NCBI RefSeq assembly: GCF_037902255.1
Contig: NZ_CP147990.1
Span: 3,750,001-3,782,000 of the forward strand
Length of the DNA: 32,000 bases
Direction: 5' to 3'
Source: Candidatus Electrothrix sp. GW3-4
GTDB taxonomy: Bacteria; Desulfobacterota; Desulfobulbia; Desulfobulbales; Desulfobulbaceae
The stretch's first letter is position 1; each line of letters begins with the position of its first letter. Of the stretch, positions 6,800 to 27,900 are shown piece by piece. Position numbers and translations under genes: made by a program. The notes below the pieces were generated by a model that worked only from the letters and a program-made list of their open reading frames with translations, did not search any database and was not told the DNA's origin.

Positions 6800-6928
6800 T
6801 CATCCTTAAAGCCCAATCGCTCTTGCACGCCTCCCTTCTTTCCCTTAGGAAGCGAACAGCCTAAAGGGAGTTTGATAAGGTGAGCATAGCACCGACCGGG
6901 ATTGGAAGCAAATATTCCTGTTCGTTCA

Positions 6929-8376: not shown

Positions 8377-9591
8377 ATGTCTAAAATACAGGTTAAAAAT
8401 CCAATCGTAGAGCTTGATGGCGACGAAATGACCCGGATTATCTGGGCCTTTATCAAGGAAAAACTGATTCTGCCCTATCTGGACGTTGACCTGAAATATT
8501 ATGATCTCTCGGTGCAAAAGCGGGACGAGACTAATGACCAGATCACCGTGGATGCGGCTGAGGCCATTAAAAAATATCGTGTCGGGGTGAAATGCGCCAC
8601 CATCACCCCGGATGAAGGCAGGGTAGAAGAGTTTGACCTCAAGGAAATGTGGAAATCACCCAATGGTACCATTCGTAATATCATTGGCGGCACCGTGTTC
8701 CGGCAGCCGATCATCTGTAGCAATATCCCCCGTCTGGTTCCGGGCTGGACCAAACCCATTGTCATTGGTCGTCATGCCTTTGGTGATCAGTACCGGGCCA
8801 CCGATTTTCTTATCCCCGGTCCTGGCAAGCTCACCATGAAATTCGAGCCTGCTGACGGCGGCGAACCCATTGAGCACGAGGTCTTTGACTTCCCCTCCTC
8901 TGGCTGCACCATGGGCATGTACAACCTGGACGACTCTATCCGGGGCTTTGCCCGCTCCTGCATGAACTATGGTCTCAACCTGGGCTGGCCTGTCTACCTG
9001 TCCACCAAGAACACCATCATGAAGAAGTACGATGGCCGCTTTAAGGATCTCTTCCAGGAGATCTTTGAGAACGAATTCGCTGAAAAATTCGCCGAGGCAG
9101 GCATCACCTATGAGCATCGTCTGATCGACGACATGGTGGCAGCGGCCCTGAAATGGGAAGGCGGCTTTGTCTGGGCCTGCAAGAACTATGATGGTGATGT
9201 CCAGTCCGACACCGTTGCCCAGGGCTTTGGCTCTTTGGGCCTGATGACCTCGGTCCTGATGACCGAAGACGGGCAAACCGTGGAGGCCGAGGCAGCACAT
9301 GGCACGGTCACCCGTCATTACCGGGAGCACCAGAAGGGCAATGCGACTTCTACCAATCCCATTGCCTCCATCTTTGCCTGGACCCGGGGCCTGAGCTATC
9401 GTGGCACCTTTGACAACACCCCTGAGGTGGTCCGGTTTGCTGAAACCCTGGAACGGGTCTGCGTGGAGACCGTGGAATCCGGTTTCATGACCAAGGATCT
9501 GGCCCTGCTGGTGGGCAGTGAGCAGGCCTGGCTGACCACCGAGGAATTCCTGGCCAAACTCGACGAGAACCTGCAGGCGGCTATGGCCTGA
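8377..9591 (+). CDS. icd: NADP-dependent isocitrate dehydrogenase (type II, eukaryote-like ~400-aa class)
   Basis: 404 aa. Full-length IDH-type blocks: [75 protein letters not shown]. Confidence 0.92.
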
Positions 9592-9805
9592 TTCCTCCAA
9601 GGGCACTGAATTTTCCGGGCAGAGAATCATTATCGTTTTGCAGGGACAACCCCATGTGTTTCGCCCTTGATGATCACCCTTGATATTTTGGGCAGGCACA
9701 GGGACCTGCCCCTACAGTTCCGAGCCCGGCCTGCCCCTGAAAGAGGCTCTTATTTTGTAAAAATTTTTATGAAAAAACCTGGCTTCTTCCAATAGATATG
9801 ATGCC

Positions 9806-10564
9806 ATGTCTTTCCTGCACAAAGGGATACAGGCCCTGCAAGAGCTGCTCTTTCCGGCCCGCTGTCTGGGCTGTGAGGAGCAGCTCGCCTCTTCCCGCCC
9901 TCCCCTGCTCTGTTCCGATTGCCTCAAGGGGGCAACCACGCTCCCTCCGCCCTTCTGCACCTGCTGCGGCACGCCTCTGCCCTTTGGCGACAACCATCTC
10001 TGCCTCAGCTGCCTGGAAGAACCCCTTGCTCTGACCAGGGCCCGCTCAAGCTTTCTCTACCAGGAACCCATCAGCACTCTGGTGCGCCAACTCAAATTTA
10101 ACGGCAACCTTACCGGTCTTGCCTCTCTTGCTGCCTTAGTACAAGAAACAGCAGCCTTTGCAGATCTCAATCCACCCGACCTTATCCTACCCGTTCCTCT
10201 CCATATCCAACGCCTGCGCGAACGGGGCTTCAACCAGTCCCTGCTTCTGGCCCGAGCCTGTTTTCCAGAATGGCAGCAACGTATTCGCTTTGACCTCCTG
10301 AAACGTCGGCGCCCCACCGTCCCGCAAACCCGACTCAGCGGTAAGGCCCGCCGCCATAACCTCCATAAGGCCTTCTGCGTCCAGCAACCTCATACTGTAC
10401 AAGGGAAACACATCCTGCTGGTGGATGATGTCCTTACCACCGGCTCCACTCTGCATGAATGCGCCAAGGTGCTCTTGGAGGCAGAAGCTACAGAGGTTGA
10501 GACCTTTACTGTGGCTAGGAGTGGGGCTGCTGGTACAGGTGGACGATCCGTATCGCAGCGATAA
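9806..10564 (+). CDS. comF: ComF-family protein (phosphoribosyltransferase fold with N-terminal Cys-rich zinc finger)
   Basis: 252 aa. Cys pairs CLGC..CSDC and CTCC..CLSC at the N-terminus. PRTase PRPP loop ILLVDDVLTTGSTL near the C-terminus. Confidence 0.8.
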   Translation: MSFLHKGIQALQELLFPARCLGCEEQLASSRPPLLCSDCLKGATTLPPPFCTCCGTPLPFGDNHLCLSCLEEPLALTRARSSFLYQEPISTLVRQLKFNGNLTGLASLAALVQETAAFADLNPPDLILPVPLHIQRLRERGFNQSLLLARACFPEWQQRIRFDLLKRRRPTVPQTRLSGKARRHNLHKAFCVQQPHTVQGKHILLVDDVLTTGSTLHECAKVLLEAEATEVETFTVARSGAAGTGGRSVSQR

Positions 10565-10773: not shown

Positions 10774-10809
10774 ATTAGAATACCCTCTTCATAGGGTAGG
10801 TGTTCCAAC
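10774..10809 (-). repeat. Solitary degenerate CRISPR repeat (orphan 1)
   Basis: attagaataccctcttcatagggtaggtgttccaac matches the array repeat at 31/36 positions. The internal hairpin taccct/agggta is intact. It lies 1008 bp away from the terminal repeat of array 1. Confidence 0.85.
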
Positions 10810-10878: not shown

Positions 10879-11331
10879 TTATACTAAAAATCTGAATCCG
10901 GCATTATCCAGGTCTGTTAATGCGGCTTCAAAACTTTCTATCATATTTTTCCCCCAAGCTTTCTTCAATACGGCCACAGTCCCGACAACTGACAACCCGA
11001 GTTCTTCCGCCGTCTGACGCGCCTTCAGATCGTCAAAAATCAAAAAATCCGCTTTACATTCTTCGGCCAGAATTATAGCCTCCGATTCACCGGGACCGAG
11101 GCTCATTCTTAATGCTTTAACCGCCAGCCTATTCTTGGCCTTTCGCCGTTCAATCCAGTCGGAGTTTTTTACCTCCTCCGCACCCGGCCTTCCTTTTCCT
11201 TTGATCACCACTTCGTGATAAACCGCTTCAGGAATCAGGATATTTTTAAAAATCTTCTCAAGAATAAACAGCTTATCAATCTTGCACAATCCGATAAGGC
11301 AGGATGAATCGGCAATGACTATTTTAGACAT
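10879..11331 (-). CDS. PIN-like (DUF3368-type) putative toxin
   Basis: 150 aa. The N-terminal IVIADSSCLIGL is typical of PIN-like nucleic-acid-binding proteins. Overlaps the upstream UPF0175-like gene by 8 nt, the classic pairing. Confidence 0.7.
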   Translation of the reverse strand: MSKIVIADSSCLIGLCKIDKLFILEKIFKNILIPEAVYHEVVIKGKGRPGAEEVKNSDWIERRKAKNRLAVKALRMSLGPGESEAIILAEECKADFLIFDDLKARQTAEELGLSVVGTVAVLKKAWGKNMIESFEAALTDLDNAGFRFLV

Positions 11332-11817: not shown

Positions 11818-14800
11818 ACCATAATACCCTCTTCATAGGGTAGGTGTTCCGACCGCCAGCTTACAAAAAAGCAGCCAAACAAGGTCAGTCTTAATACCCT
11901 CTTCATAGGGTAGGTGTTCCGACGCGACAGTGGTCGTAAATCGAGGCGATTCCAGCCGTCTTAATACCCTCTTCATAGGGTAGGTGTTCCGACCTGTCCA
12001 CTCGGAGATAATGATTATAATCAGATGTCTTAATACCCTCTTCATAGGGTAGGTGTTCCGACGGCAACAACAACACGGCAGTAATGCAGAGAAAAATGTC
12101 TTAATACCCTCTTCATAGGGTAGGTGTTCCGACTGGTTTCTTCGTCGGCACTGCCCATGCAACGATGTCTTAATACCCTCTTCATAGGGTAGGTGTTCCG
12201 ACAAACCAGCAACCTTGTTCAGACGAAAATGTCGGTCTTAATACCCTCTTCATAGGGTAGGTGTTCCGACAAATGATAACGCTCGAGCGAGCGCGGATCT
12301 GCGTCTTAATACCCTCTTCATAGGGTAGGTGTTCCGACGGAGATGTTGCCAGAATATACAGAGATCAACGTCTTAATACCCTCTTCATAGGGTAGGTGTT
12401 CCGACGGGACTACGATCTACTATCTCAACAAAATCAGATCGTCTTAATACCCTCTTCATAGGGTAGGTGTTCCGACACCAGTCGCAATTGGAACGATTTA
12501 CAAAGAAGGTCTTAATACCCTCTTCATAGGGTAGGTGTTCCGACAAAAGGCGAGACTTACATGTGGACAAAGGCTGATGCGTCTTAATACCCTCTTCATA
12601 GGGTAGGTGTTCCGACAAAGCGGTTTTTTCTCCCCAAAGGCGTAGTTAAGCCTGTCTTAATACCCTCTTCATAGGGTAGGTGTTCCGACATGAAGCAGTA
12701 TCTCAACAACAGACACAAGCTCAGATTGTCTTAATACCCTCTTCATAGGGTAGGTGTTCCGACTGAAAAGTGGGTATAACACAAAGTGGGCTAAGTCTTA
12801 ATACCCTCTTCATAGGGTAGGTGTTCCGACGGCTGGCCTTGTTGGGATTCATTTTTTACCTAGGTCTTAATACCCTCTTCATAGGGTAGGTGTTCCGACG
12901 TCGTGGCAGCTCCAACCGGTCGTCGAACCAGCCGTCGTCTTAATACCCTCTTCATAGGGTAGGTGTTCCGACTATTGGTATGGTGCTTATAATAGCTTTG
13001 TTACCACTGTGTCTTAATACCCTCTTCATAGGGTAGGTGTTCCGACTCGGGCAATTGTGAAATAATATTTCTTCTAGCTGTCTTAATACCCTCTTCATAG
13101 GGTAGGTGTTCCGACTATAAGAAAAACATCCAAGAGAAGGGGTTTCAAAGTCTTAATACCCTCTTCATAGGGTAGGTGTTCCGACTATTTGAAGTTGGTT
13201 GATGAAGGTGGACAAGATGAGTCTTAATACCCTCTTCATAGGGTAGGTGTTCCGACACAAATGGATGCCTAAATCAAACCACAAACTTTGTCTTAATACC
13301 CTCTTCATAGGGTAGGTGTTCCGACTCAAATAAAAAAGATGGCGACCCCGTAAAAATGTCTTAATACCCTCTTCATAGGGTAGGTGTTCCGACACCATTT
13401 CTTATTCAGAAAATGGGATTTGGAAGTTGGTCTTAATACCCTCTTCATAGGGTAGGTGTTCCGACTATTATGAGCTACGTATTAGTTCATATAATTATGT
13501 CTTAATACCCTCTTCATAGGGTAGGTGTTCCGACCCAGCTTGCGATGCCAGGTGCCAAGCTGCCAGATGGTCTTAATACCCTCTTCATAGGGTAGGTGTT
13601 CCGACCTAGGACTTGACTTGTCGATTCATCATTTCATCAATGAGTCTTAATACCCTCTTCATAGGGTAGGTGTTCCGACGGCGGAGACTGTGATGAAGTC
13701 CCCACTGGGGACGCGTCTTAATACCCTCTTCATAGGGTAGGTGTTCCGACCATTATGGCTACGGAAGCCGATCAAGCAGTTGGTCTTAATACCCTCTTCA
13801 TAGGGTAGGTGTTCCGACATACTCCATCCTGTTCCAATGGGAATTGCCTTAGGTCTTAATACCCTCTTCATAGGGTAGGTGTTCCGACATTACTCCCTCT
13901 TGCTTCTGCACAGGCTCAATGTCCGTCTTAATACCCTCTTCATAGGGTAGGTGTTCCGACGTCATACTGCCGTCAGAATAGACCCAGTAGGCAACTGTCT
14001 TAATACCCTCTTCATAGGGTAGGTGTTCCGACAGAACGTTACGCTAACATGGCAGTAGAACTTGTCTTAATACCCTCTTCATAGGGTAGGTGTTCCGACT
14101 ATGCTGTATTTTCTGGGCTTATCAACCGAAAAGTCTTAATACCCTCTTCATAGGGTAGGTGTTCCGACGTCGGAAATTTTTGGATGTCAAAACACATCCA
14201 GTCAGTCTTAATACCCTCTTCATAGGGTAGGTGTTCCGACAAATTCAACAAATCAGGGGGGATATTATGACTTTGTCTTAATACCCTCTTCATAGGGTAG
14301 GTGTTCCGACTATCTACCGACATCCTAGTGATGGTATGAGGATTGTCTTAATACCCTCTTCATAGGGTAGGTGTTCCGACACAGAAAAACAATTAAAAAA
14401 GTGTGCGGTTGCAATACGTCTTAATACCCTCTTCATAGGGTAGGTGTTCCGACCGGTAACTATTTGAGAAAATCCGTTTATAATTACGTCTTAATACCCT
14501 CTTCATAGGGTAGGTGTTCCGACCTCTCGACGTGTTGTCGGGATGCAGACATTTCGTCTTAATACCCTCTTCATAGGGTAGGTGTTCCGACGCCGTTGGT
14601 GGTAAAAACAACTTCAGGACAGTTTGTCTTAATACCCTCTTCATAGGGTAGGTGTTCCGACTATCAAGAACGGTCCCAATTGGGGCAATTTCACAATGTC
14701 TTAATACCCTCTTCATAGGGTAGGTGTTCCGACTACTGGCTTTTGTCATGTATTCCCAACTCCCAAGTCTTAATACCCTCTTCATAGGGTAGGTGTTCCG

Positions 14801-14941
14801 ACGGCAATGCTCTTGCCCAACAACAGCGACAACAGGTCTTAATACCCTCTTCATAGGGTAGGTGTTCCGACAATACTGAAGAGGGTGATGTGAGTATTAA
14901 TATTTGTCTTAATACCCTCTTCATAGGGTAGGTGTTCCGAC
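11818..14941 (-). CRISPR. CRISPR array 1: 45 repeats of 36 bp, 44 spacers
   Basis: - **Repeats:** hand count of gtcttaataccctcttcatagggtaggtgttccgac on the plus strand. The low-coordinate terminal repeat is degenerate (accataa in place of gtcttaa).
- **Spacers:** 31-38 nt, all different within this array.
- **Why minus strand:** the conserved AT-rich leader is at the high-coordinate end and repeat decay is at the low end.
- **Repeat structure:** on the minus strand the repeat is GTCGGAACACC-TACCCT-ATGAAG-AGGGTA-TTAAGAC. That is a hairpin followed by ATTAAGAC, resembling the ATTGAAAS 8-nt crRNA handle. Confidence 0.97.
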
Positions 14942-15235
14942 AGCGGCCTTGCTTTAAACAATACTGAATTCAGTAAATTAAGCAAGTAAAAAAACGACAT
15001 GGAATCGGGTTTTGAAAGTTGTGAAAATTGAACCGGCATTACAACCGCCGATACAGGAAAATGCACGACATCGTGACTCTTTTGTCATGATCGGTATTAA
15101 AATTTGAATTTTAAGCCATTTTCTAAAACTTTTCATCGGTAAATTCAGGGTAGTAGATACTGATTTTTAATCATGACGAATAATGACAAAGAGAAAAAAT
15201 AGCCTGAAAAAATTCCATGTCCGACCGTTTTTCCC
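14942..15235 (-). promoter_or_regulatory. Leader of array 1 (294 bp)
   Basis: AT-rich and 288/294 identical to 28580-28873. On the minus strand there is a candidate promoter, TTGCTT-N16-TATTGT, ending ~20 nt before the first repeat. A perfect 14-bp palindrome, TACTGAATTCAGTA (14962-14975), lies between the two boxes. Confidence 0.75.
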
Positions 15236-15242
15236 CTTCCTC

Positions 15243-15581
15243 TCAGTATGCACAAACCACCTGCTCTATCATTTCCGCCAACCATTGATTCACGGTTTTT
15301 CCGCTCGCAAAGGCCCGAGCAACAACCTCGGCGTGCAGGCCGGGGTGAATCTGCACAAGCAATTCGCCTGAATACTCCTTACGCGGCTCAACCCCGTCCT
15401 CCTGACAGCTATCCAAAAAGGTATCCAGGACCTTCTTGCCTTCCCTGAGTAATCCACCGATATCCTGGGAATAAAAAACAACCTTGCTGCTCAGACCAGC
15501 AAACTCACCGCAAAACATTCCGTGTTTCGGATCGTAGCTGATAACCGCCCGATAGCCATCAATATCGACAATATTCATCAT
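15243..15581 (-). CDS. HicB-like antitoxin-fold protein with C-terminal RHH-type DNA-binding tail; no HicA partner
   Basis: 112 aa. The N-terminal DGYRAVISYDPKHGMFCGEF and the C-terminal VQIHPGLHAEVVARAFASGKTVNQWLAEMIEQ resemble HicB-family antitoxins. No small HicA-like ORF is adjacent. Confidence 0.65.
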   Translation of the reverse strand: MMNIVDIDGYRAVISYDPKHGMFCGEFAGLSSKVVFYSQDIGGLLREGKKVLDTFLDSCQEDGVEPRKEYSGELLVQIHPGLHAEVVARAFASGKTVNQWLAEMIEQVVCAY

Positions 15582-15650: not shown

Positions 15651-16484
15651 TCACGCATTGGGCAGCGATTCGCCCAGAAAAATCACCTGTCGACTACTGC
15701 GGACCACCTGCGTTTTTTGGGGATGCAGAGAAAGCCCCAACTCCTCCAGCCGTTCCCCGGCAAAGGCTTCCGCTGCCAGGGCCTTTTTTTTGGTGTCGGC
15801 AAAGAGAAGGAAGTCATCGGCAAAACGGACAAAAGGAATATTTGCCCTCACCAAGGCTGTGTCGAACTGGTGCAGATAGAGATTACAAAACAGGGGCGAG
15901 AGGATGGAGCCCTGACAGACACCGCGACGATTACGGAGCAAACTGCAATGGTGCGCCCCCTGAACAAGCCATTGCTCAATCAGCTTCATGGCAGCACCAT
16001 CCCGGATAAAGCCTTTGAGCACCTTCAGTAACTGTTTATGGGGGATGGAATCAAAAAATTTCGTAATATCCGCATCCACCAGCCAGGCCTGACCAATCCG
16101 TATTCGTTCCCTGGTCTTGGCCAGAGCGGCCTGTACACTGCGGCCCGGTCGGTACCCATAAGAATCATTATGAAACAAGGCCTCGGCCTGAGGTTCCAGG
16201 ACCGTAAGCAGAGCTCGCTGCACCAGTTTGTCCCGAAGAAAATGGGCTGAGATGATCCGTTGCCCACCATCGGGCTTTGCCATAGGAAACTGGCGCAGGG
16301 GCAACGGCCTATAGGTACCGGCCAGGATATGTTCCCGGCATTCGAGAGTATGGCGGAGCAGGTGGTGCTGCAGCTCGTCTCGGGAGACACCCGGCGCCCA
16401 GGGCGTGTGTTCCCGCCGCAGGCGGCGCCAGGCTACGTCCAACACCTTCGGCGTCATGGCCTGTTCAAGCAGGGGAGTCGTCAT
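15651..16484 (-). CDS. Stand-alone reverse transcriptase (group II intron-like, fingers-palm only)
   Basis: 277 aa. RT blocks: KPDGGQRIIS (RT1), SYGYRPGRSVQAAL (RT3), LVDADITKFFDSIPH (RT4), GVCQGSILSPLFCNLYL and RFADDFLLF (RT5, YxDD as FADD), LSLHPQKTQVV (RT6/7). It ends ~55 aa after FADD, so no thumb/X domain. The ATG at 16484 overlaps the cas1 stop by 20 nt; an alternative ATG is at 16457. Confidence 0.88.
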   Translation of the reverse strand: MTTPLLEQAMTPKVLDVAWRRLRREHTPWAPGVSRDELQHHLLRHTLECREHILAGTYRPLPLRQFPMAKPDGGQRIISAHFLRDKLVQRALLTVLEPQAEALFHNDSYGYRPGRSVQAALAKTRERIRIGQAWLVDADITKFFDSIPHKQLLKVLKGFIRDGAAMKLIEQWLVQGAHHCSLLRNRRGVCQGSILSPLFCNLYLHQFDTALVRANIPFVRFADDFLLFADTKKKALAAEAFAGERLEELGLSLHPQKTQVVRSSRQVIFLGESLPNA

Positions 16485-17496
16485 AGTTCAGCCCTCTCTT
16501 TTCTCCTTGTTGCTTCATAAAGGCTCCGAACCGGGCCGTCTGCCCGTTGAGCAGTTCTCTGAGCGGAGTTGTACTCAGTTCTTCATCCTCCTCCTCTTCT
16601 CCGCTCTGATCCGGTCTCGGCCATTGTTCGCGATATTCGGCCCAGGCCGTAAAGAAGAGCGGGCGGGTTGTCTTGCTCAGGCGACAGCCCTCATCTTTTC
16701 TGTAATAAAATGGTGCCTTATCCAAGGCCGTGTCATGAAGCCAATTCAGGACAAAATGATCCACCCCGGCACGGAACAGCTCGCTGAAGTCCAGGGCCAG
16801 GGATTCCCGGCCCGGATAATCCTGATGAAGAAAGCCCAGCGAGGGATCAAAACCAGCTCGCAGCACAGCCTGGCGGACCTCGGAAAGGAGCAGGGTATAG
16901 CCGAGGGAGAGCAGGGAGTTGACCGGGTCACGGGGCGGTCTGCGGTTACGACCGGTGAAGCGCAGCTCTTCCGGGAGATATTGCGCCAACAGGGCGAACC
17001 ATGCCTGGGCCACATGCCCCTCGACTCCCAGTAAGGTTTGCAGCGAATCTACAGCATTAACCTGCTCCTGGGCTCTCAGCACTTTATCTGCGAATTGCGC
17101 ACAAGCGGGTGCAGCCTCCGGCCACAGGCCGACAAAAGCATGGAGCGGCAAGACATACCTGCTCATTTTTTCCGAGACAAACCACTTTGCCGTTTCCAGA
17201 CGCGTTGTCGAATCCGCTGCCAGCTGATGTTGCAACCTGCGCAACGGCAAACGTACAGCCAGGCCGCTGCCCAGCACAGCAGCCGGTCTTCTCCGGTCCG
17301 GGAGAATAACAACCGGAACTCCGGCTTCACCTAACACCCGCCATACCGTGGTTTCCACCAGAGGGTTGCCGTAAATCACCACCTGCTCCAAAGGATTCAA
17401 AGGAATCTGCTGGGGCTTTCTCCCCTTCTCTTGCAGCTCCAGTACACCCTCCTTATAGCGCAGGGTGCTTTTTCGACGATCAATAACAAAAATCAT
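16465..17496 (-). CDS. cas1: CRISPR-associated integrase Cas1
   Basis: The ORF is 16465..17856. The start is assigned to the ATG at 17496 (MIFVIDRRKSTLRYKEG), preceded by aggaga. Cas1 motifs: GVEGHVAQAWF, RNRRPPRDPVNSLLSLGYTLL, GFDPSLGFLHQDYPGRESLALDFSELFR. The upstream 120 codons run through REP hairpins. Confidence 0.92.
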   Translation of the reverse strand: MIFVIDRRKSTLRYKEGVLELQEKGRKPQQIPLNPLEQVVIYGNPLVETTVWRVLGEAGVPVVILPDRRRPAAVLGSGLAVRLPLRRLQHQLAADSTTRLETAKWFVSEKMSRYVLPLHAFVGLWPEAAPACAQFADKVLRAQEQVNAVDSLQTLLGVEGHVAQAWFALLAQYLPEELRFTGRNRRPPRDPVNSLLSLGYTLLLSEVRQAVLRAGFDPSLGFLHQDYPGRESLALDFSELFRAGVDHFVLNWLHDTALDKAPFYYRKDEGCRLSKTTRPLFFTAWAEYREQWPRPDQSGEEEEDEELSTTPLRELLNGQTARFGAFMKQQGEKRGLNYDDSPA

Positions 17497-17520
17497 ACAT
17501 GTTCTCCTGTGGTGCTGTAG

Positions 17521-17636
17521 AGGCAGGCCCCTGTTCCTGCCCGAAATATCGAGGTGATCATCAGGGCGAACACAGGGGTTCGCCCCTACGAAACGATAAT
17601 GATTCCGGGTAGGGACACGGCATGCCGTGTCCCTAC
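17521..17636. repeat. Three GC-rich hairpins between the cas2-like gene and cas1
   Basis: The three are ggcagg-N8-cctgcc (17522-17541), gggcgaac-acaggg-gttcgccc (17564-17585), and the perfect 28-nt palindrome gtagggacacggcatgccgtgtccctac (17609-17636), which overlaps the cas2-like stop codon. Confidence 0.7.
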
Positions 17637-18013
17637 GCCCTCTCTTTCCCGCCAAACAGACGACGGAAAAACCGCCCTGCTCTTGATGGCGTTTGTTTCG
17701 GAACAGACCCTCCATACAGACCGTGCAATTTGTCGTTCTGCCTTCCAGCGGTCCAGACAGCACCGGGATAAGGAACAGGATAAAGGCGTACATCGTCTTC
17801 CTTATCATTAACCCGAGCCAGCACCCCAGCCACCACCTCCTCCAAATCGATGACATCGGCTTTCAAGAGAAAGACCGACCTCTGCACAGAAACTCCCCGT
17901 TTCTTGCAGAAATAATGGAGCCTGCGCAGCCTTTTTTCATGCCGAACATCATAGGCAAGCAGGTACCATTGTGCCTCTCCTCGCTTTCCTTTGCTTTGCC
18001 GTGTCGTATCCAT
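17633..18013 (-). CDS. cas2: Second Cas2-like protein (126 aa, C-terminal extension)
   Basis: The pattern WYLLAYDVRHEKRLRRLHYFCKKRGVSVQRSVFLLK ... DDVRLYPVP follows the Cas2 ferredoxin-fold pattern (YD, Q-SVF, D-vR-Y). A ~40-aa basic tail extends beyond the core. Confidence 0.7.
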   Translation of the reverse strand: MDTTRQSKGKRGEAQWYLLAYDVRHEKRLRRLHYFCKKRGVSVQRSVFLLKADVIDLEEVVAGVLARVNDKEDDVRLYPVPYPGAVWTAGRQNDKLHGLYGGSVPKQTPSRAGRFFRRLFGGKERA

Positions 18014-18036
18014 TGTCTTTTTTCATCATATTCGTA

Positions 18037-18070
18037 GGAGCAGGGGCACGGCATGCCGTGCCCCTGCTCC
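18037..18070. repeat. Perfect 34-nt palindrome between the two cas2 genes
   Basis: ggagcaggggcacggcatgccgtgcccctgctcc. Its core GGGGCACGGCATGCCGTGCCCC is shared with the elements at 17609-17636 and 19061-19090. Confidence 0.75.
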
Positions 18071-18094
18071 CCGATTCGTTTCGCCCGCCGCCCC

Positions 18095-18379
18095 CTACCC
18101 CATATACAAAATCGGCACTTTGAAGCCGATACCGCTACACTTGGTCAAACCACGGGCCTTCCTGCTCCCGTCCAAAGGAGCCAGCAGGAGCATATCCTGT
18201 TCCTCATGAAGCAGGTCAGTAAGCTGAAGAAACAGCTCCGACGCCTCAGCCTGGGTCAGCTTGCACTCAAAAACAGAGTACTGGGCCGACAACTTCCATT
18301 TCTTCAAAACCCGGAACAGTTTGCGACGACGTTTATTATCTGTGATATCATAGGCAATCACCATCGCTCTCCGTTTCAT
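18095..18379 (-). CDS. cas2: CRISPR-associated endoribonuclease Cas2
   Basis: 94 aa. MVIAYDITDNKRRRKLFRVLKKWKLSAQYSVFECKL is the canonical Cas2 N-terminus. Confidence 0.85.
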   Translation of the reverse strand: MKRRAMVIAYDITDNKRRRKLFRVLKKWKLSAQYSVFECKLTQAEASELFLQLTDLLHEEQDMLLLAPLDGSRKARGLTKCSGIGFKVPILYMG

Positions 18380-18381
18380 AT

Positions 18382-18948
18382 TCAGGGCACCTGCTCATGA
18401 TCTACATTTTCACTGACAATGTTACGGAACTCGTCCAGGAGCTGATCCATCGTATCAAGAAAGTCATCGACAGATTTCTCCAGGCGCTGTTTTTCCCTGT
18501 CCCTGATACACTGGGTTTTGTAGCGCTCCAGCTTTTGGAAACGCTCGTCAATGTCGCTGAGAAATTCTTCAGAAAGGACATTCAACTGATTGGCAACCTG
18601 CTGATATATCTTTCCGAAATGCTCCATCCGTTGCTGACGTAAACTGGTTTTTCCCGTCACCAGGACATGGTTACAGGCTTCACGGATAGAATGAAGGCGA
18701 GTCTCCATAACCAAGCTCAACGCTTGGCGTCGATGCTTAAATCCAACTGACAGCTCTGCCATTAAATGCTCCCGGACAAGCTGGCGCTCCTGCCTATTAA
18801 AAACCGTGGGGATCATACTGCGGTTATGCCGTCCCATCGTTTTGAGTACCAGTTGTTCGTTATCCTCACCCCGACTGGCAGCCTCTTCCGGCAGCCTTTT
18901 CAGGTAATCATTAACATCTGCTTGTGGTTCTCTATGATCAGAATGCAT
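18382..18948 (-). CDS. Uncharacterised 188-aa all-helical/coiled-coil protein, translationally coupled to cas2
   Basis: Its stop TGA (18384-18382) lies 2 nt from the cas2 ATG (18379). RBS aaggagaaaatATG. Charged heptad-like C-terminal half (ERFQKLERYKTQCIRDREKQRLEKSVDDFLDTMDQLLDEF). I recognise no family. Confidence 0.6.
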   Translation of the reverse strand: MHSDHREPQADVNDYLKRLPEEAASRGEDNEQLVLKTMGRHNRSMIPTVFNRQERQLVREHLMAELSVGFKHRRQALSLVMETRLHSIREACNHVLVTGKTSLRQQRMEHFGKIYQQVANQLNVLSEEFLSDIDERFQKLERYKTQCIRDREKQRLEKSVDDFLDTMDQLLDEFRNIVSENVDHEQVP

Positions 18949-19060: not shown

Positions 19061-19090
19061 CGTAGGGACACGGCGCGCCGTGCCCCTACG
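19061..19090. repeat. 30-nt near-perfect palindrome (REP-like)
   Basis: cgtagggacacggcgcgccgtgcccctacg with one mismatch. It lies between the membrane-protein gene and the 188-aa gene. Confidence 0.7.
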
Positions 19091-19131: not shown

Positions 19132-20214
19132 TTACGCAACAGCATTTTTCAGGTGGGCCTCCGCCTCTTTGACCACCCGTTTACCAGCCCTGCGCACCCG
19201 ATGAACAGCAGCCCCGTGCAGCAGATCATCCCGTTCCGCCTCGCCATTGACATGTGCTTTCAGCGTTTCTTTTTCCACAGCCTCCTGATGATGCGCCATA
19301 AAGACCGGAACCACAGCAATGGTCAGCGTGGAAAAGGCCAACATGATTCCGGCTTCCAGCAGGGCAGAAATCAAAATAGAAAACAGAAAGACAAACTGAA
19401 GCGGCAAGAGCGTCCGGTTCCATAAGGACTCAACCACTTGGAGAAAGGCGATGACATGCGGTTCGTTGGCTCGTTTATCCTCTGAATAATCAAGTTCCTG
19501 AATTCCTTTTCGTTCCTGTTCTGTTGCCACTTCTATCGCCTCTCTCTCCTTCCTGAATTCGGCAGCCAACATGGAAGCTGCATCAGCTGCATGCCGATCA
19601 AACTCCATAAGGGCCTGCTGCTGTCCGGTTTTTTCCTGAGCCAGACGCTGTGCAAATTCCTCATATCTGGGGCCTCGAAACGTACCTCGGACCGTGTTGC
19701 CCATTTCCTGAAGCAGGAGAGACTCCAATTGTTGAATACGCTGCCCCCATTGCTCCTGAACAGCCTTTCTTTTTTGTGCCTGGCCTGCTTGGGCAGTGAC
19801 TTTTCGGGCATTGTACAAACGCTCTGCTTCGATAAGACGCTCCTCGTGCCGTTGCTCCACAGCCTCCAGCTCAGCGGTCCGCACTTTCTCCAGACCAGGG
19901 CGATCAAGGCGGGCAGAGAGAAAAAGCATGGAACAAAGCAGGGAAAGGAAGACCAGGCCCAAGCGAAAAAAAAGCGAGATCAGACGAACCGTGGTCGGAT
20001 ACTCGTGGTCGGAAAGATGGTGGAGATAATAATGCCAGATAATGGCTGAGATTTTACCGCATTCCAAGGTAACAGCCAGCAACAGAGCAAGGGGCTGCGG
20101 ACTAAAAAAAGAGCTCAGAACCCGGTATTCAAGAAAGAATGAGCAGACGAAGAGGCCGATACCAACAATAAGTTGCACCAGCCAACTTCCTTTAAAAAAG
20201 ACGGACAAAAACAT
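19132..20214 (-). CDS. Uncharacterised membrane protein: 3 N-terminal TM helices, ~170-aa coiled coil, C-terminal TM hairpin (360 aa)
   Basis: The ORF is 19132..20292. The start is assigned to the ATG at 20214 (MFLSVFFKGSW), preceded by ggaggg. Hydrophobic segments: LVQLIVGIGLFVCSFFL, LALLLAVTLECGKISAIIW, LISLFFRLGLVFLSLLCSMLFL, LQFVFLFSILISALLEAGIMLAFSTLTIAVVPVF. The central region is charged and Q/E/R-rich. No family recognised. Confidence 0.6.
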   Translation of the reverse strand: MFLSVFFKGSWLVQLIVGIGLFVCSFFLEYRVLSSFFSPQPLALLLAVTLECGKISAIIWHYYLHHLSDHEYPTTVRLISLFFRLGLVFLSLLCSMLFLSARLDRPGLEKVRTAELEAVEQRHEERLIEAERLYNARKVTAQAGQAQKRKAVQEQWGQRIQQLESLLLQEMGNTVRGTFRGPRYEEFAQRLAQEKTGQQQALMEFDRHAADAASMLAAEFRKEREAIEVATEQERKGIQELDYSEDKRANEPHVIAFLQVVESLWNRTLLPLQFVFLFSILISALLEAGIMLAFSTLTIAVVPVFMAHHQEAVEKETLKAHVNGEAERDDLLHGAAVHRVRRAGKRVVKEAEAHLKNAVA

Positions 20215-20492: not shown

Positions 20493-20864
20493 TTACACGG
20501 AATTTATTTTCGCAAGCGTTGCAATGGGTTTTAAACGGGAAATCTTTTTTGCTTCCGGGCTGTTCATGGCGTGCCAAAGATCCCAATCCTGCTGGAGTCC
20601 CAACCAGAAGTCCGCTGACATACCAAGCACCTGAGATAGCCGAAGGGCAGTGGATGGAGTGATTGAACGTCGCTCCTTAAGGATATCAATAAGAGAAGAG
20701 TATGAAACATCCAAACGTCGAGCAAATTCTTTTCTTGTTATACCCAGGGGTTTGATAAACTCCTCGGCAAGCATCTCGCCGGGATGCGTCGGAGGGCGTT
20801 GCCGGGGCAGGCGCCGACCGGCTGGTCTTTCAGTGGTAGTCAGTGATTTCGACTTCGCATGCAT
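20493..20864 (-). CDS. higA: HigA-family HTH antitoxin
   Basis: The ORF is 20493..21083. The start is assigned to the ATG at 20864 (MHAKSKS), which overlaps the higB end by 35 nt. HigA-type block: THPGEMLAEEFIKPLGITRKEFARRLDVSYSSLIDILKERRSITPSTALRLSQVLGMSADFWLGLQ. Confidence 0.8.
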   Translation of the reverse strand: MHAKSKSLTTTERPAGRRLPRQRPPTHPGEMLAEEFIKPLGITRKEFARRLDVSYSSLIDILKERRSITPSTALRLSQVLGMSADFWLGLQQDWDLWHAMNSPEAKKISRLKPIATLAKINSV

Positions 20865-21123
20865 GGCTGTTCTCCCATTGAAAGCAGATTCGATACTGCT
20901 GATTAATTCGTATGCTGTATTGATCATCCCGGTCACCTCTGAGGCGTTCCAGGCGGTTTCCAGGAGGAATCCTGAGTTCACCGATTTCTCTGATTCGGTT
21001 GATTTGATCCAGCTTTCGACGGGCCACAGGCCAAATGGACTTCGGACAGCATTTTCTTGCAGCTCGGGATGCTGAGCCGTCAAAAATATCTTCTGTACCC
21101 GCGTTTTTGAACGACTGTATCAT
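20830..21123 (-). CDS. higB: HigB toxin (RelE/ParE superfamily, 'plasmid maintenance system killer' type)
   Basis: 97 aa. MIQSFKNAGTEDIF ... LRIPPGNRLERLRGDRDDQYSIRINQQYRICF is typical of HigB. A perfect TATAAT box lies on the minus strand at 21135-21130, just upstream. Confidence 0.85.
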   Translation of the reverse strand: MIQSFKNAGTEDIFDGSASRAARKCCPKSIWPVARRKLDQINRIREIGELRIPPGNRLERLRGDRDDQYSIRINQQYRICFQWENSHACEVEITDYH

Positions 21124-21235: not shown

Positions 21236-21271
21236 ATCTTAATACCCTCTTCATAGGGTAGGTGTTTCAAT
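21236..21271 (-). repeat. Solitary degenerate CRISPR repeat (orphan 3)
   Basis: atcttaataccctcttcatagggtaggtgtttcaat matches the array repeat at 32/36 positions, with the hairpin intact. Confidence 0.85.
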
Positions 21272-21299: not shown

Positions 21300-21605
21300 T
21301 CAAACTCTTTCTCGCCAGTAATCCGGTTGACGGTGCAGATGCATCACTGCGATGACCTGAATGACAGTTTCTTTGACTCGATAGATGAGTCCGTACGGGA
21401 ATCGGTGAATAATGTAGCGTCTGATACCACTGTCTTTATCAAGCAAAGGCCAGATCTCAGGCGAGTCCCTCACTGTCTCAATGGCCTGATCCACCTCATT
21501 GAGAAACTTTATTCCGAGATTGGTCGCCTGCCTCTCGTACCAGGTGCGAGAATATTCCAGCTCAGGATAGACATCCGGGTGCAGGTCAACGCTGTACTTT
21601 GGCAT
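21300..21605 (-). CDS. RelE/ParE-family toxin
   Basis: The ORF is 21300..21665. The start is assigned to the ATG at 21605 (MPKYSVDLHPDV). The C-terminal RRYIIHRFPYGLIYRVKETVIQVIAVMHLHRQPDYW is ParE/RelE-like. Overlaps the upstream antitoxin by 20 nt. Confidence 0.7.
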   Translation of the reverse strand: MPKYSVDLHPDVYPELEYSRTWYERQATNLGIKFLNEVDQAIETVRDSPEIWPLLDKDSGIRRYIIHRFPYGLIYRVKETVIQVIAVMHLHRQPDYWRERV

Positions 21606-21831
21606 TTCGATACAGGCGTTTTTTGACTTCCTCCCACGGGGTACAGTTAACAGCACCGGAGTCAATATCGTTCAACCGTCTGTCAATCTCCTTTTGCCAC
21701 GCATGCCAAATTTCCCTATCTAGGGGAGCTTCAAGACTGGCAAGCAGGGCCTCTGCTATGTGTGCTCGTTCGGCTTCTGGTCGTTTAAGGGCACTATCCA
21801 GTATTTTCTCCGCAACCGTTATGCTCATCAT
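21586..21831 (-). CDS. Putative addiction-module antitoxin (81 aa)
   Basis: Contains ERAHIAEALLASLE ... WHAWQKEIDRRLNDIDSG ... WEEVKKRL, the pattern of the small 'addiction module component' antitoxins. Coupled to the toxin gene. Confidence 0.65.
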   Translation of the reverse strand: MMSITVAEKILDSALKRPEAERAHIAEALLASLEAPLDREIWHAWQKEIDRRLNDIDSGAVNCTPWEEVKKRLYRNAKVQR

Positions 21832-21912: not shown

Positions 21913-24900
21913 GCTGTAATACCCTCTTCATAGGGTAGGTGTTCCGACAAAGAGCAAGTTGTCAAAGCGCCCCCGTTCTCGGTCTTAATACCCTCTTCAT
22001 AGGGTAGGTGTTCCGACCCACAGAGACAAGCTCAGAGACAAGCTCAGAAAAGTCTTAATACCCTCTTCATAGGGTAGGTGTTCCGACAGACCTGCTGGTG
22101 TAGGAATAACGAGTCAGATCTGTCTTAATACCCTCTTCATAGGGTAGGTGTTCCGACAATGGTTTCGCCCCGTAAGTAATCATAAGGGCGAGACTAAAAC
22201 AACCGTCTTAATACCCTCTTCATAGGGTAGGTGTTCCGACTTACACGTTTTATGTTACGTAGGCTTGCCAATGGTGTCTTAATACCCTCTTCATAGGATA
22301 GGTGTTCCGACGGAGAGAAGGTGCCAGAAGACTATAACTCGTCGGAGGTCTTAATACCCTCTTCATAGGGTAGGTGTTCCGACTTAGCTTGATATTACAA
22401 TTCATCACAACTTTATTAGGTCTTAATACCCTCTTCATAGGGTAGGTGTTCCGACTGAATTCAATTCAGGAGAGCAGTATTTTTATGTCTTAATACCCTC
22501 TTCATAGGGTAGGTGTTCCGACTTAGCTTGATATTACAATTCATCACAACTTTATTAGGTCTTAATACCCTCTTCATAGGGTAGGTGTTCCGACTGAATT
22601 CAATTCAGGAGAGCAGTATTTTTATGTCTTAATACCCTCTTCATAGGGTAGGTGTTCCGACAACAATAATTCCCTCAACCGACCCCCTCGCTTGTCTTAA
22701 TACCCTCTTCATAGGGTAGGTGTTCCGACAAGGGAGATGTTATGAGTGATCGTTAGAAATGGTCTTAATACCCTCTTCATAGGGTAGGTGTTCCGACTGT
22801 TGAATTATGGAGAATACGTTATCTAGTGGGCGTCTTAATACCCTCTTCATAGGGTAGGTGTTCCGACGAAAGGGATGCTTTGAAACGCTTATTACAGGAA
22901 GTCTTAATACCCTCTTCATAGGGTAGGTGTTCCGACAACAAAGGAGTTACTTATGTCATCACTGAACTGAGTCTTAATACCCTCTTCATAGGGTAGGTGT
23001 TCCGACTGGAGCTAAGACCAAAAGGGAGCACAAGCTTATTGTCTTAATACCCTCTTCATAGGGTAGGTGTTCCGACTTATTTGAGACACCTGAATGCAAA
23101 GACCCAGAATGTCTTAATACCCTCTTCATAGGGTAGGTGTTCCGACTGTTTCCAGATGACAACAGAGCATCCTTCTTTGAGTCTTAATACCCTCTTCATA
23201 GGGTAGGTGTTCCGACTGGAGCTAAGACCAAAAGGGAGCACAAGCTTATTGTCTTAATACCCTCTTCATAGGGTAGGTGTTCCGACCTCACAGCGAAAGA
23301 AAGAGGTAAATTTGCAAAGGTCTTAATACCCTCTTCATAGGGTAGGTGTTCCGACAAAAAAGATATTTGCTAAGAACATAATAGTCAAAGCGTCTTAATA
23401 CCCTCTTCATAGGGTAGGTGTTCCGACGCATTCGGTTGTTAACTAATCGCTTGCCTAAAACTCTGTCTTAATACCCTCTTCATAGGGTAGGTGTTCCGAC
23501 TGAAGAGGTTGAACAGGCTCGCCCTGTTCACGGTCTTAATACCCTCTTCATAGGGTAGGTGTTCCGACTATGTCAAAAATGTGAAACAACATGGAAACCG
23601 TCTTAATACCCTCTTCATAGGGTAGGTGTTCCGACCGATTGACGTTTCCAGTGCAACTGTTTTTTGTCTTAATACCCTCTTCATAGGGTAGGTGTTCCGA
23701 CGACACCTCCTCATCGAGGTAGAAGGAGTCTTTTGTCTTAATACCCTCTTCATAGGGTAGGTGTTCCGACGAAAGAAAGTCCCAAATGGGAACAACTGTG
23801 GATGTCTTAATACCCTCTTCATAGGGTAGGTGTTCCGACAGGGGAGGCTGGGAAACGGGTCGCTTTACAGAGGTCTTAATACCCTCTTCATAGGGTAGGT
23901 GTTCCGACAGATCAATCGCGTACAAGGAACAACATCTGCCGTGGCGTCTTAATACCCTCTTCATAGGGTAGGTGTTCCGACTGGTTTACACGCCAGTTGA
24001 GGTTGATGGATCAGTCTTAATACCCTCTTCATAGGGTAGGTGTTCCGACGAGGAACTGCCATATCTAAACGGATGGGGAGTTCGGTCTTAATACCCTCTT
24101 CATAGGGTAGGTGTTCCGACCGCTGTCGCAGTTCAACCAAAACCGCATTGCCGTCTTAATACCCTCTTCATAGGGTAGGTGTTCCGACAAGTAGAAACCG
24201 ATGTAGCAGAAGGAAACTACCCGGTCTTAATACCCTCTTCATAGGGTAGGTGTTCCGACAGGGCTCTTGCTGGGGTCCAGCACATTCCTGTACTTGTCTT
24301 AATACCCTCTTCATAGGGTAGGTGTTCCGACTCTGCCGTCGCCTGTGACAGAAGAAACCGAGAAGTCTTAATACCCTCTTCATAGGGTAGGTGTTCCGAC
24401 GTGAACAAAGGCGGGAAAGGTCATAAAGACGATGTCTTAATACCCTCTTCATAGGGTAGGTGTTCCGACGTTTATATCCCATTTATGGGATGCTATTATC
24501 ACGTCTTAATACCCTCTTCATAGGGTAGGTGTTCCGACGCATATCAATGATCCTGTGGGCAAAGAGATGGCGTCTTAATACCCTCTTCATAGGGTAGGTG
24601 TTCCGACCGAATTATTACTACAATTGGCAAATAAAGAGGGTGTCTTAATACCCTCTTCATAGGGTAGGTGTTCCGACAGGTGAGCTGTACTATACAGATT
24701 GCTTGCCTACTGTCTTAATACCCTCTTCATAGGGTAGGTGTTCCGACAGGGGAATCTCGTGTAGCAGGATGAACTATTGGTCTTAATACCCTCTTCATAG
24801 GGTAGGTGTTCCGACCCAGAGGTCGTGCAGATGGGAGAGCTGGTTGATGTCTTAATACCCTCTTCATAGGGTAGGTGTTCCGACGGCTTGCGGCTCATGC

Positions 24901-27900
24901 CGGAGCACATATTCCCAAAAGTCTTAATACCCTCTTCATAGGGTAGGTGTTCCGACACAAGTGTTCACTGTATTGGTGAGCAGAATCGAGTCTTAATACC
25001 CTCTTCATAGGGTAGGTGTTCCGACGCATGTAAAAGTCTGTTGAGAGCTTTCTGGTCCAAGTCTTAATACCCTCTTCATAGGGTAGGTGTTCCGACATTG
25101 CGGGGGCGAAAACCAGCAACCTTGTTCAGTCTTAATACCCTCTTCATAGGGTAGGTGTTCCGACGAGGAACTGCCATATCTAAACGGATGGGGAGTTCGG
25201 TCTTAATACCCTCTTCATAGGGTAGGTGTTCCGACCGCTGTCGCAGTTCAACCAAAACCGCATTGCCGTCTTAATACCCTCTTCATAGGGTAGGTGTTCC
25301 GACAAGTAGAAACCGATGTAGCAGAAGGAAACTACCCGGTCTTAATACCCTCTTCATAGGGTAGGTGTTCCGACAGGGCTCTTGCTGGGGTCCAGCACAT
25401 TCCTGTACTTGTCTTAATACCCTCTTCATAGGGTAGGTGTTCCGACTCTGCCGTCGCCTGTGACAGAAGAAACCGAGAAGTCTTAATACCCTCTTCATAG
25501 GGTAGGTGTTCCGACGTGAACAAAGGCGGGAAAGGTCATAAAGACGATGTCTTAATACCCTCTTCATAGGGTAGGTGTTCCGACGTTTATATCCCATTTA
25601 TGGGATGCTATTATCACGTCTTAATACCCTCTTCATAGGGTAGGTGTTCCGACGCATATCAATGATCCTGTGGGCAAAGAGATGGCGTCTTAATACCCTC
25701 TTCATAGGGTAGGTGTTCCGACCGAATTATTACTACAATTGGCAAATAAAGAGGGTGTCTTAATACCCTCTTCATAGGGTAGGTGTTCCGACAGGTGAGC
25801 TGTACTATACAGATTGCTTGCCTACTGTCTTAATACCCTCTTCATAGGGTAGGTGTTCCGACAGGGGAATCTCGTGTAGCAGGATGAACTATTGGTCTTA
25901 ATACCCTCTTCATAGGGTAGGTGTTCCGACCCAGAGGTCGTGCAGATGGGAGAGCTGGTTGATGTCTTAATACCCTCTTCATAGGGTAGGTGTTCCGACG
26001 GCTTGCGGCTCATGCCGGAGCACATATTCCCAAAAGTCTTAATACCCTCTTCATAGGGTAGGTGTTCCGACACAAGTGTTCACTGTATTGGTGAGCAGAA
26101 TCGAGTCTTAATACCCTCTTCATAGGGTAGGTGTTCCGACGCATGTAAAAGTCTGTTGAGAGCTTTCTGGTCCAAGTCTTAATACCCTCTTCATAGGGTA
26201 GGTGTTCCGACATTGCGGGGGCGAAAACCAGCAACCTTGTTCAGTCTTAATACCCTCTTCATAGGGTAGGTGTTCCGACGGGGCAGGACCCTCTATTCGG
26301 GAGGCAAATGAAAAGTCTTAATACCCTCTTCATAGGGTAGGTGTTCCGACCAGGGACAGGATCGTGCTGGCAACTTGATCTGTGTCTTAATACCCTCTTC
26401 ATAGGGTAGGTGTTCCGACGTTTCTTTAAAATCTAACCTTTCTCCGATGTCTTAATACCCTCTTCATAGGGTAGGTGTTCCGACTTTAAAAAAGCCGTTA
26501 AAACAAACTTATGTGGTGCGTCTTAATACCCTCTTCATAGGGTAGGTGTTCCGACAATGGATACATGCAGGAGGCTTTTGCCTACACAGTGGTCTTAATA
26601 CCCTCTTCATAGGGTAGGTGTTCCGACTGCGGTTGGTTTAATAGTAGGAGCCTTTCTCATGTCTTAATACCCTCTTCATAGGGTAGGTGTTCCGACGGAG
26701 AAATTTACCGTGGAAAAGAAATATTTTACAGTCTTAATACCCTCTTCATAGGGTAGGTGTTCCGACACTTACGGTCGGGTTATCCGTTCAAACATGGATG
26801 CGTCTTAATACCCTCTTCATAGGGTAGGTGTTCCGACGGAGCCTCCTAAATAGGATGTATTGTTGGGTGGGTCTTAATACCCTCTTCATAGGGTAGGTGT
26901 TCCGACAGCTTTCAACGCCATTACGGTTCTCGTAGCTGGGTCTTAATACCCTCTTCATAGGGTAGGTGTTCCGACAATGTGAATGCTCCTCTGAATGGCT
27001 CGGCTACGACGTCTTAATACCCTCTTCATAGGGTAGGTGTTCCGACTCTTAGAGATGTAATGTCGCCTGCTCACACTATGGTCTTAATACCCTCTTCATA
27101 GGGTAGGTGTTCCGACGAGAGTTTCTGGCATGCTGGGAAGTAATCTGGGTCTTAATACCCTCTTCATAGGGTAGGTGTTCCGACTATTTGGCGGTTACAG
27201 ATGCCATAAGGCGAAGTCTTAATACCCTCTTCATAGGGTAGGTGTTCCGACGTACATCACGTTGAACCAAGTTAACCAACAAAACGTCTTAATACCCTCT
27301 TCATAGGGTAGGTGTTCCGACACACTTATCCTCTTAAGGAGGCTGTTCCATGAGTCTTAATACCCTCTTCATAGGGTAGGTGTTCCGACGAAGAGAGGGG
27401 CTTTAACCCCGCTTGTATATGTGGTCTTAATACCCTCTTCATAGGGTAGGTGTTCCGACAGCAGCAAAAGGAACAACCGCCGTAGTTGCTATGTCTTAAT
27501 ACCCTCTTCATAGGGTAGGTGTTCCGACTTTCTGCCTGACCCTAACGGAGAAAGGGGGCCGTCTTAATACCCTCTTCATAGGGTAGGTGTTCCGACGTCA
27601 GCCAGAAAATGCAGCTGGAGGACTTGTTTGTCTTAATACCCTCTTCATAGGGTAGGTGTTCCGACAGCAGCAAAAGGAACAACCGCCGTAGTTGCTATGT
27701 CTTAATACCCTCTTCATAGGGTAGGTGTTCCGACAGAGGACTCCGCCTTTACAGGGGCACAATCAGGTGGTCTTAATACCCTCTTCATAGGGTAGGTGTT
27801 CCGACAATAGCACTGGAGAGAGCACTAAGCGTAAATAATAAGTCTTAATACCCTCTTCATAGGGTAGGTGTTCCGACACCTTCTACAAAGATGATAACGG

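Follow-up and report, generated by a model that had tools for sequence, protein, structure and literature searches.

The window analysed here, a stretch of 32,000 nucleotides (nt) from the cable bacterium Candidatus Electrothrix sp. GW3-4 (contig NZ_CP147990.1, positions 3,750,001 to 3,782,000), carries on its minus strand four genes that encode two different Cas2 proteins, a Cas1 integrase and a separate reverse transcriptase (RT). With lengths in amino acids (aa) and positions counted from the first letter of the window, they are as follows.

18095-18379, minus strand: cas2a, 94 aa (Pfam CRISPR_Cas2, 6.6e-16)
17633-18013, minus strand: cas2b, 126 aa (Pfam CRISPR_Cas2, 1.2e-12, 48 bits against a cut-off of 23.8; TIGR01573, 37 bits against 24.5)
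16465-17499, minus strand: cas1, 344 aa (Pfam Cas_Cas1, 4.4e-67, full length; TIGR00287, 1e-55)
15651-16484, minus strand: RT, WP_339134936.1, 277 aa (Pfam RVT_1, 1.1e-36, over residues 69-271)

The open reading frames and their Pfam assignments, with which NCBIfam agrees for all four genes, bear out the layout proposed in a first-pass annotation made from the sequence alone, namely cas2a, cas2b, cas1 and RT in that order on the minus strand. The same annotation had the RT start codon overlap the cas1 stop by 20 nt, which the coordinates confirm, as cas1 ends at 16465 and the RT begins at 16484 in a different frame. We suggest that the four genes form the module for spacer acquisition in a CRISPR-Cas locus of type III, probably of subtype III-B (Cmr), that it belongs to RT-CRISPR clade 13, and that it works with a Cas2a/Cas2b heterodimer and with the RT acting in trans; we put the probability of this reading at roughly three in four.

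A stand-alone reverse transcriptase of the clade 13 type

The RT contains blocks RT0-RT7, with a FADD motif at residues 221-224, 53 residues ahead of the C-terminus, and it ends six residues past the 'FLG' of RT7. In the group II intron RT/maturase model, which has 353 positions, it covers only 3-266, and it aligns to residues 3-271 of the 428-aa GsI-IIC RT (PDB 6AR1), partial coverage which indicates a protein of fingers and palm, including the N-terminal extension, that lacks the thumb/X domain. The model coverage and the GsI-IIC alignment thus agree with the first-pass description of an RT with FADD in place of YADD, a stop about 55 aa later and no thumb/X domain. Homologues number more than 2000, the closest ~120 being nearly all 270-320 aa long, and in an alignment of 20 RT sequences all finish at 'FLGxxLPxP'; the ADD is the same in every one, and the F is kept in more than 90%. 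The short homologues and their shared end indicate that the window RT is neither a truncation nor a chance open reading frame. The catalytic motifs of the family are likewise invariant in that alignment, and the window RT, a group-II-intron-derived enzyme, has its polymerase motifs intact.

The PADLOC model that fits the window RT best, over the full length and at 2.5e-90, is PDLC01136, the CRISPR 'RT' profile; the RT part of Cas1_IIIb comes next (3.6e-52). An exhaustive search against 1.8 billion protein representatives returned RTs of ~275-350 aa as the top ~22 matches; next came proteins of 630-780 aa with ~40% identity, which Pfam resolves into RT-Cas1 fusions with the Cas1 domain 16-65 residues past the RT domain.

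Published phylogenies place RTs that are not fused to Cas1 in clades 1, 9 and 13 (PMC5541045, PMC6013744). Toro et al. (2017) found that in several clades the RTs stay separate from Cas1 (PMC5541045), and Toro et al. (2018) described clade 13 as RTs unfused to Cas1, equal to branch 7 of Silas 2017 (PMC6013744, PMC5513706). Their 2018 Table S1 lists, as clade 13 members of type 'RT', proteins of Thiothrix lacustris (WP_028490526.1 on NZ_KK211259.1) and of Thioalkalimicrobium (now Thiomicrospira) microaerophilum (WP_044413451.1 on NZ_JYNN01000089) (PMC6013744). By accession these are loci L018 and L049 of the set of related loci described below, and the window RT is 65% identical to the first and 47-49% identical to the second, the nearest RT-Cas1 fusions being only ~40% identical to it. 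Ranked in this way by similarity to listed members, the window RT is assigned to RT-CRISPR clade 13 and not to a retron, Abi or intron class. The locus agrees with the assignment: cas1 and the RT are separate open reading frames in different frames, in the window as in ~50 related loci, and cas6, a Csm6-family gene, two cas2 genes and two arrays provide the type III setting with cas1, cas2 and an array. The RT-Cas1 fusion class (clades 2-8 and 10-12) does not fit, the genes being separate and their order reversed (cas1, then RT).

That the RT is a separate protein placed after cas1, as first proposed, therefore stands, and the arrangement is conserved in relatives. To call the module unusual among RT-associated systems was an overstatement, since a separate RT, two Cas2 proteins, the missing thumb and FADD each have a published precedent: clades 1, 9 and 13 were already known to be unfused, and dual Cas2 proteins had been reported by Gonzalez-Delgado et al. 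(2019), who found that the Vibrio vulnificus RT-Cas1 requires both Cas2A and Cas2B and who proposed a heterodimer (PMC6821258). By the same account, a pair of distinct Cas2 proteins is a hallmark of clade 6 and is often seen in clade 13 (PMC6821258). Nor does the missing thumb set the RT apart, for thumb-less RTs, and RTs with FADD, are also met with in RT-Cas1 fusions. The window thus joins a catalogued clade, as a well-preserved example of a known architecture and not as an exceptional one.

From the 150 closest RT representatives, 20 longer proteins were scanned; they comprise RT-Cas1, Cas6-RT, RT-Cas4 and (FHA-)RT-AEP fusions, one group II intron RT and several RT-only proteins. The RT-Cas4 fusion and the RT-AEP primase fusions (P0297, P0300, P0302, P0321 and P0332) are among the closest RT relatives outside the clade, and the RT-AEP fusions P0321 and P0332 have an extra N-terminal FHA domain. 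They represent further ways of joining thumb-less CRISPR-type RTs to nucleic-acid enzymes.

The Cas2 paralogues and the related loci

The integrase encoded by cas1 has E159, H224 and D236/E239 as its candidate catalytic, metal-binding residues, and at least 93% of the 54 homologues compared retain them. The two Cas2 proteins share 30% identity over 63 aa and both keep the beta1 aspartate ('AYDI' in Cas2a, 'AYDV' in Cas2b). Their C-terminal tails differ: that of Cas2a carries a conserved 'GF.xPxxYxG', and that of Cas2b consists of a linker of low complexity and, after it, an amphipathic motif of basic character, both kept in orthologues, so that the basic tail noticed at first sight is confirmed as a feature of the family. 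Both paralogues pass the Pfam and TIGRFAM cut-offs for Cas2.

A one-genome-per-species scan, annotated with phmmer and then with hidden Markov models built from the first matches, yielded 72 related loci. Both Cas2 types stand beside RT and Cas1 in 54 of them, as two adjacent cas2 genes in 47 and as a single fused gene in 7. The other 18 are cut by contig ends, are visibly decayed, have distant RTs (at most 40% identity), or are the locus L008, taken up below. The RT adjoins cas1 and cas2 in more than 50 loci spanning several phyla. Of the 47 loci with two cas2 genes, 37 (from Desulfobulbaceae, Thiothrix, Leucothrix, Thiocapsa, Methylobacter, Competibacter, Phycisphaerales, Magnetococcales and others) have the order Cas2a-Cas2b-Cas1-RT, 7 have RT-Cas2a-Cas2b(-Cas1) and 3 are arranged differently. 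Where the RT follows cas1, its start runs into the cas1 stop with an overlap of 4 nt (12 loci) or 8 nt (another 12), always as separate open reading frames, and overlaps of this kind are typical of translational coupling.

A neighbour-joining tree of 113 Cas2 domains from the related loci places all 55 Cas2b in one clade that excludes all 58 Cas2a, with a mean identity of 48% among Cas2a domains, 39% among Cas2b domains and 23% across the two groups. As the Cas2b clade excludes every Cas2a, the duplication predates the spread of the module, and Cas2a and Cas2b are best described, on their sequences, as old paralogues that have been co-inherited. Further evidence comes from nature's own fusions: in 7 loci (Thiomargarita, Thioploca, Ectothiorhodospiraceae, Competibacteraceae and others) a single open reading frame of 202-239 aa joins an N-terminal half that matches Cas2a (1e-13 to 1e-15) to a C-terminal half that matches Cas2b (1e-9 to 1e-15), and in a large protein collection this fusion family comprises 38 clusters of 193-246 aa. 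An AlphaFold2 model of one fusion shows two ferredoxin-like Cas2 folds (pLDDT 84, pTM 0.78), and its best Foldseek matches are Cas2 structures (target TM 0.7-0.77). Fusion of paralogues that are always adjacent is a classic sign of joint work, which makes a Cas2a/Cas2b heterodimer the natural reading. From the fusions and the co-retention we infer that such a heterodimer replaces the usual homodimer; the first-pass annotation had already proposed one, and the fusions in 7 loci and 38 clusters, together with the separation of the Cas2b clade, strengthen that proposal.

In the lineages with fused Cas2a-Cas2b, the fused gene and cas1 are separated by a second RT paralogue, in the order RT1-Cas2ab-RT2-Cas1 (L058, 3259-4185; L075, 10851-11945; L076, 3014-4108; L060, 5891-6247). 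Its motifs are degenerate, with 'LGMANI' or 'VGLAQI' for 'LVDADI', which removes the first aspartate, and 'VADD' or 'FQDE' for 'FADD', and it also has a C-terminal extension. This second RT may lack activity and serve the active one as a structural partner.

Arrays, type III context and neighbouring genes

The module lies between two CRISPR arrays, and further type III genes are found upstream of it on the minus strand.

11818-14941, minus strand: CRISPR array 1, 45 repeats (36 nt each), spacers 31-38 nt long
14942-15242, minus strand: putative leader of array 1, between hicB and the first repeat, assigned from the polarity of the array
21913-28579, minus strand: CRISPR array 2, 96 repeats, spacers of 29-37 nt and one of 47
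29024-30142, minus strand: Csm6/NE0113-family CARF gene, a type III ancillary (Pfam Cas_NE0113, 1.1e-40; TIGR02584, 2.5e-56)
31232-31939, minus strand: cas6 (Pfam CRISPR_Cas6, 1.2e-10)

The two arrays share one 36-nt repeat in near-identical copies. Both have a degenerate terminal repeat at the low-coordinate end, which indicates that they are read on the minus strand like the cas genes and puts the leader of array 1 directly downstream of the RT and hicB. The effector type is suggested by relatives: the related locus L077 reads Cmr2-Cmr3-Cmr4-Cmr5-Cmr6 ... u386-u188-Cas2a-Cas2b-Cas1-RT, and L016 has RAMP genes upstream. The locus is therefore probably a type III CRISPR-Cas system of subtype III-B/Cmr.

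The arrays hold 139 spacers, 119 of them distinct; spacers in such number between near-identical repeats, the conserved Cas1 residues and the invariant RT motifs suggest a module in use. In array 2 a block of 16 repeat-spacer units at 24050-25164 is tandemly duplicated at 25165-26279, and three small duplications lie at 22384-22625, 23007-23250 and 27460-27698; as a result, 20 of the 139 spacers occur twice. Orphan degenerate repeats lie past the trailer ends of both arrays, at 10774-10809 and 21236-21271, parted from them by a DUF3368 gene (10879-11331) and a ParE-like gene (21300-21665) respectively, which suggests insertions into, or decay of, old array ends. A search for self-targeting spacers found none with a match elsewhere in the window, and comparison with the fetched related loci gave chance 16-17-mers only. 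Toxin-antitoxin genes are dense in the locus (15243-15581, 20493-21123, 21300-21665 and 30245-30866) and include HicB, HigB/HigA-like, ParE-like and MNT/HepT members. One of them, hicB (15243-15581), separates the RT from the leader of array 1, as it does in L001, L002 and L032.

Two uncharacterised genes and three copies of a GC-rich palindrome lie in or directly upstream of the module.

18382-18948, minus strand: u188, 188 aa, helical, directly upstream of cas2a
19132-20214, minus strand: u386, ~360 aa from M27, with three transmembrane helices, a charged helical region of ~165 aa (coiled coil) and two transmembrane helices
17609-17637, no strand assigned: 29-nt GC-rich palindrome GTAGGGACACGGCATGCCGTGTCCCTACG, at the junction of the cas2b stop and cas1; same junction in L001 and L002
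18040-18068, no strand assigned: the same palindrome, between cas2a and cas2b
19062-19090, no strand assigned: the same palindrome, between u386 and u188

No match was found for u188 in Pfam, NCBIfam or PDB, and none for u386 among families, structures or annotations. The u188 family comprises only 84 clusters, all hypothetical. Its AlphaFold2 model (pLDDT 77) has three long helices, one of ~90 residues, a predicted long coiled coil for which Foldseek against PDB returned nothing below E=5 and a profile search of PDB sequences nothing significant. The first-pass annotation had suggested that a partner may supply the thumb function. We considered u188 as a detached RT thumb and rejected it on account of this long coiled-coil model without a structural match; a special C-terminal extension of Cas1 was likewise considered as a thumb substitute, and the Cas1 tail, a variable acidic linker followed by one conserved helix, shows nothing diagnostic. 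The u386-u188 pair occurs in 24-25 of the 72 related loci, and u386 is always paired with u188. The pair sits between Cmr or Cas6 genes and cas2a regardless of the side on which the RT stands (in L077 at 6757-8579), and on one contig (L078) u188 is not followed by cas2. It is possible that u188 is an accessory of the module.

The palindrome GTAGGGACACGGCATGCCGTGTCCCTACG occurs three times in the window, at module gene junctions only, where shuffled sequences give an expectation of zero. Each copy begins at or just past the upstream stop codon and has no U-tract after it, and the same junctions carry the palindrome in the Electrothrix relatives L001 and L002. It may act as an intra-operon RNA hairpin that tunes stability or stoichiometry.

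Proposed mechanism and comparison with known systems

In the mechanism that we propose, Cas2a and Cas2b would form a central heterodimer that bridges two Cas1 dimers, Cas1(4)-Cas2a-Cas2b, and their differing C-terminal tails would make the integrase asymmetric. The RT would bind this complex in trans, and, by analogy with the RT-Cas1 fusion systems, protospacers derived from RNA (and from DNA) would be copied, tailed and integrated at the leader-proximal repeat. The thumb-less RT would probably lean on the Cas1-Cas2 scaffold to hold its template and would make short products only.

Several points weigh against this proposal. The idea that spacers come from RNA is carried over from RT-Cas1 fusions that belong to other clades, and on clade 13 or stand-alone CRISPR RTs the literature searched yielded phylogenetic papers and no functional study. 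Among the 20 longer proteins scanned from the 150 closest RTs there was no fusion in the order Cas1-then-RT, and a physical contact between Cas1 and RT thus has no Rosetta-stone support; the AlphaFold2 model of the Cas2a-Cas2b fusion speaks to the folds of the halves and not to dimer-like packing between them. The effector genes lie beyond the window, and L008 has cas1-RT and no cas2. The module is also not universal, being deleted or decayed in L019, L032 and L044: in L019 (Thiotrichaceae, 9120-10062) a deletion fuses cas2a codon ~56 to cas1 codon ~109, and in L032 (Ca. Electrothrix marina, 10046-10498) the last 150 RT codons remain beside hicB, with no cas1 or cas2. The layout as such is conserved in dozens of species.

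It could be that the RT does not copy RNA protospacers into cDNA and that its main work is that of a terminal transferase, of a DNA polymerase that fills gaps or of a structural part of the integrase, which we consider unlikely. The missing thumb, from which low processivity is expected, would fit such a role, as would the degenerate second RT of the fused-Cas2 lineages, which indicates that RT folds can serve structurally. In addition, the Marinomonas mediterranea RT-Cas1 puts short 3' DNA tails on RNA protospacers and integrates them directly (PMC11014452). Against this stand the invariant catalytic motifs of the window RT family and spacer acquisition from RNA by four of the four RT-Cas1 systems tested (PMC11014452). 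Such a role would in any case refine the mechanism proposed above and is not an exclusive alternative to it.

We think it still less likely that Cas2a alone forms the integrase dimer, in a conventional Cas1(4)-Cas2(2) complex, with Cas2b redundant or moonlighting, for example as a nuclease, toxin or regulator. Some Cas2 and VapD relatives have roles other than in an integrase, which counts in favour of this possibility, as do the higher scores of Cas2a on Cas2 profiles and the few loci that keep one recognisable cas2 (L019, L045). These single-cas2 loci are, however, visibly degraded, as the deletion in L019 illustrates; both paralogues are kept, always adjacent, in 54 of the 72 loci; fusions in the order a-b occur in 38 protein clusters; and both Cas2 proteins are essential in V. 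vulnificus (PMC6821258).

A last alternative, that the RT comes from an unrelated retroelement or defence system (group II intron remnant, retron or DRT/Abi), lies beside cas1 by accident and has no part in adaptation, is highly improbable and largely refuted, for although its best sequence matches among solved structures are group II intron RTs (5hhj, 2e-39; 6ar1, 2e-36), some databases label homologues 'retron-type RT' and NCBIfam gives weak matches to retron and Drt models, these last score far under their cut-offs (retron St85, 63 bits against 235; Drt3a, 53 against 200), Rfam finds no group II intron or retron RNA (whole window at the gathering score, and E<=1 around the genes), the window RT has no maturase/X or endonuclease domain and so does not qualify as part of a mobile group II intron, and both the match to the CRISPR RT profile and the conserved neighbourhood of cas1 and cas2 point to adaptation.

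We therefore retain the heterodimeric Cas2 module with an RT in trans as the preferred reading. What the present analysis adds to the published picture is the conservation of the module, the Cas2a-Cas2b fusions, the old divergence of the two Cas2 proteins and of their tails, the u386-u188 pair, the degenerate second RT and the junction palindromes; in the literature searched, we found no description of the fusions, of the u386-u188 pair, of the second degenerate RT, of the palindromes or of the cas1-then-RT as against RT-first orders. In type III systems the orientation of a spacer must give a CRISPR RNA complementary to transcripts, yet there is no protospacer-adjacent motif (PAM), and the RT-Cas1 systems tested so far show little strand bias for most genes and none that is general (review PMC9048733). 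It is conceivable, and we offer it only tentatively, as an idea more probably wrong than right, that the clade 13 integrase is built asymmetric, with an obligate Cas2a/Cas2b heterodimer whose tails differ and an RT in trans (in some lineages with a degenerate paralogue), and that this asymmetry tells the ends of the protospacer apart and fixes spacer orientation without a PAM; the conserved membrane and coiled-coil pair u386/u188 could in addition be a new accessory of loci of this kind. Clade 13 is a natural split machine, in which Cas1, Cas2a, Cas2b and the RT are separate and the roles of the parts are easier to assign, and the natural Cas2a-Cas2b fusions are a ready single-chain 'heterodimer' for structural work; together they make the clade a good system for dissecting RT-assisted adaptation. 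Compact stand-alone RTs with a heterodimeric Cas2 might also broaden the toolbox for RNA recording.

Among named systems, the group II intron GsI-IIC RT (PDB 6AR1) resembles the window RT in its RT0-RT7 fingers and palm (match 2e-36), and differs in that the window RT, at 277 aa against 428, lacks both the thumb/X and the DNA-binding domain and is not accompanied by intron RNA. The RT-Cas1-Cas2A-Cas2B system of Vibrio vulnificus YJ016 (clade 6) is, like that of the window, an RT-linked type III module that is flanked by two arrays and has two distinct Cas2 proteins (PMC6821258). There, however, the RT is fused to Cas1, in the order RT-Cas1, Cas2A, Cas2B, whereas the window genes are separate; Cas2A and Cas2B are ~70% identical, against 30% for Cas2a and Cas2b; and the RT carries YADD where the window RT has FADD (PMC6821258).

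The Thiomicrospira Cas6-RT-Cas1-Cas2 system (PDB 7KFT; Wang et al., 2021, PMC8102632) resembles the window in the RT itself, which likewise consists of fingers and palm with FADD and no thumb/X, and the sequence match of its Cas6-RT-Cas1 to the window RT reaches 8e-32. For the class to which this protein and the M. mediterranea RT-Cas1 belong, RNA spacer acquisition has been demonstrated. Both are single polypeptides, with Cas6 and Cas1, that work with a Cas2 homodimer, whereas the window encodes three or four separate proteins. Closest of all are the members of clade 13: the genus of the window's cable bacterium is absent from the published list, and the module shares with those members, from sulfur-oxidising Gammaproteobacteria and Deltaproteobacteria, a stand-alone group-II-intron-like RT in a type III locus and the two different Cas2 proteins that are frequent there.

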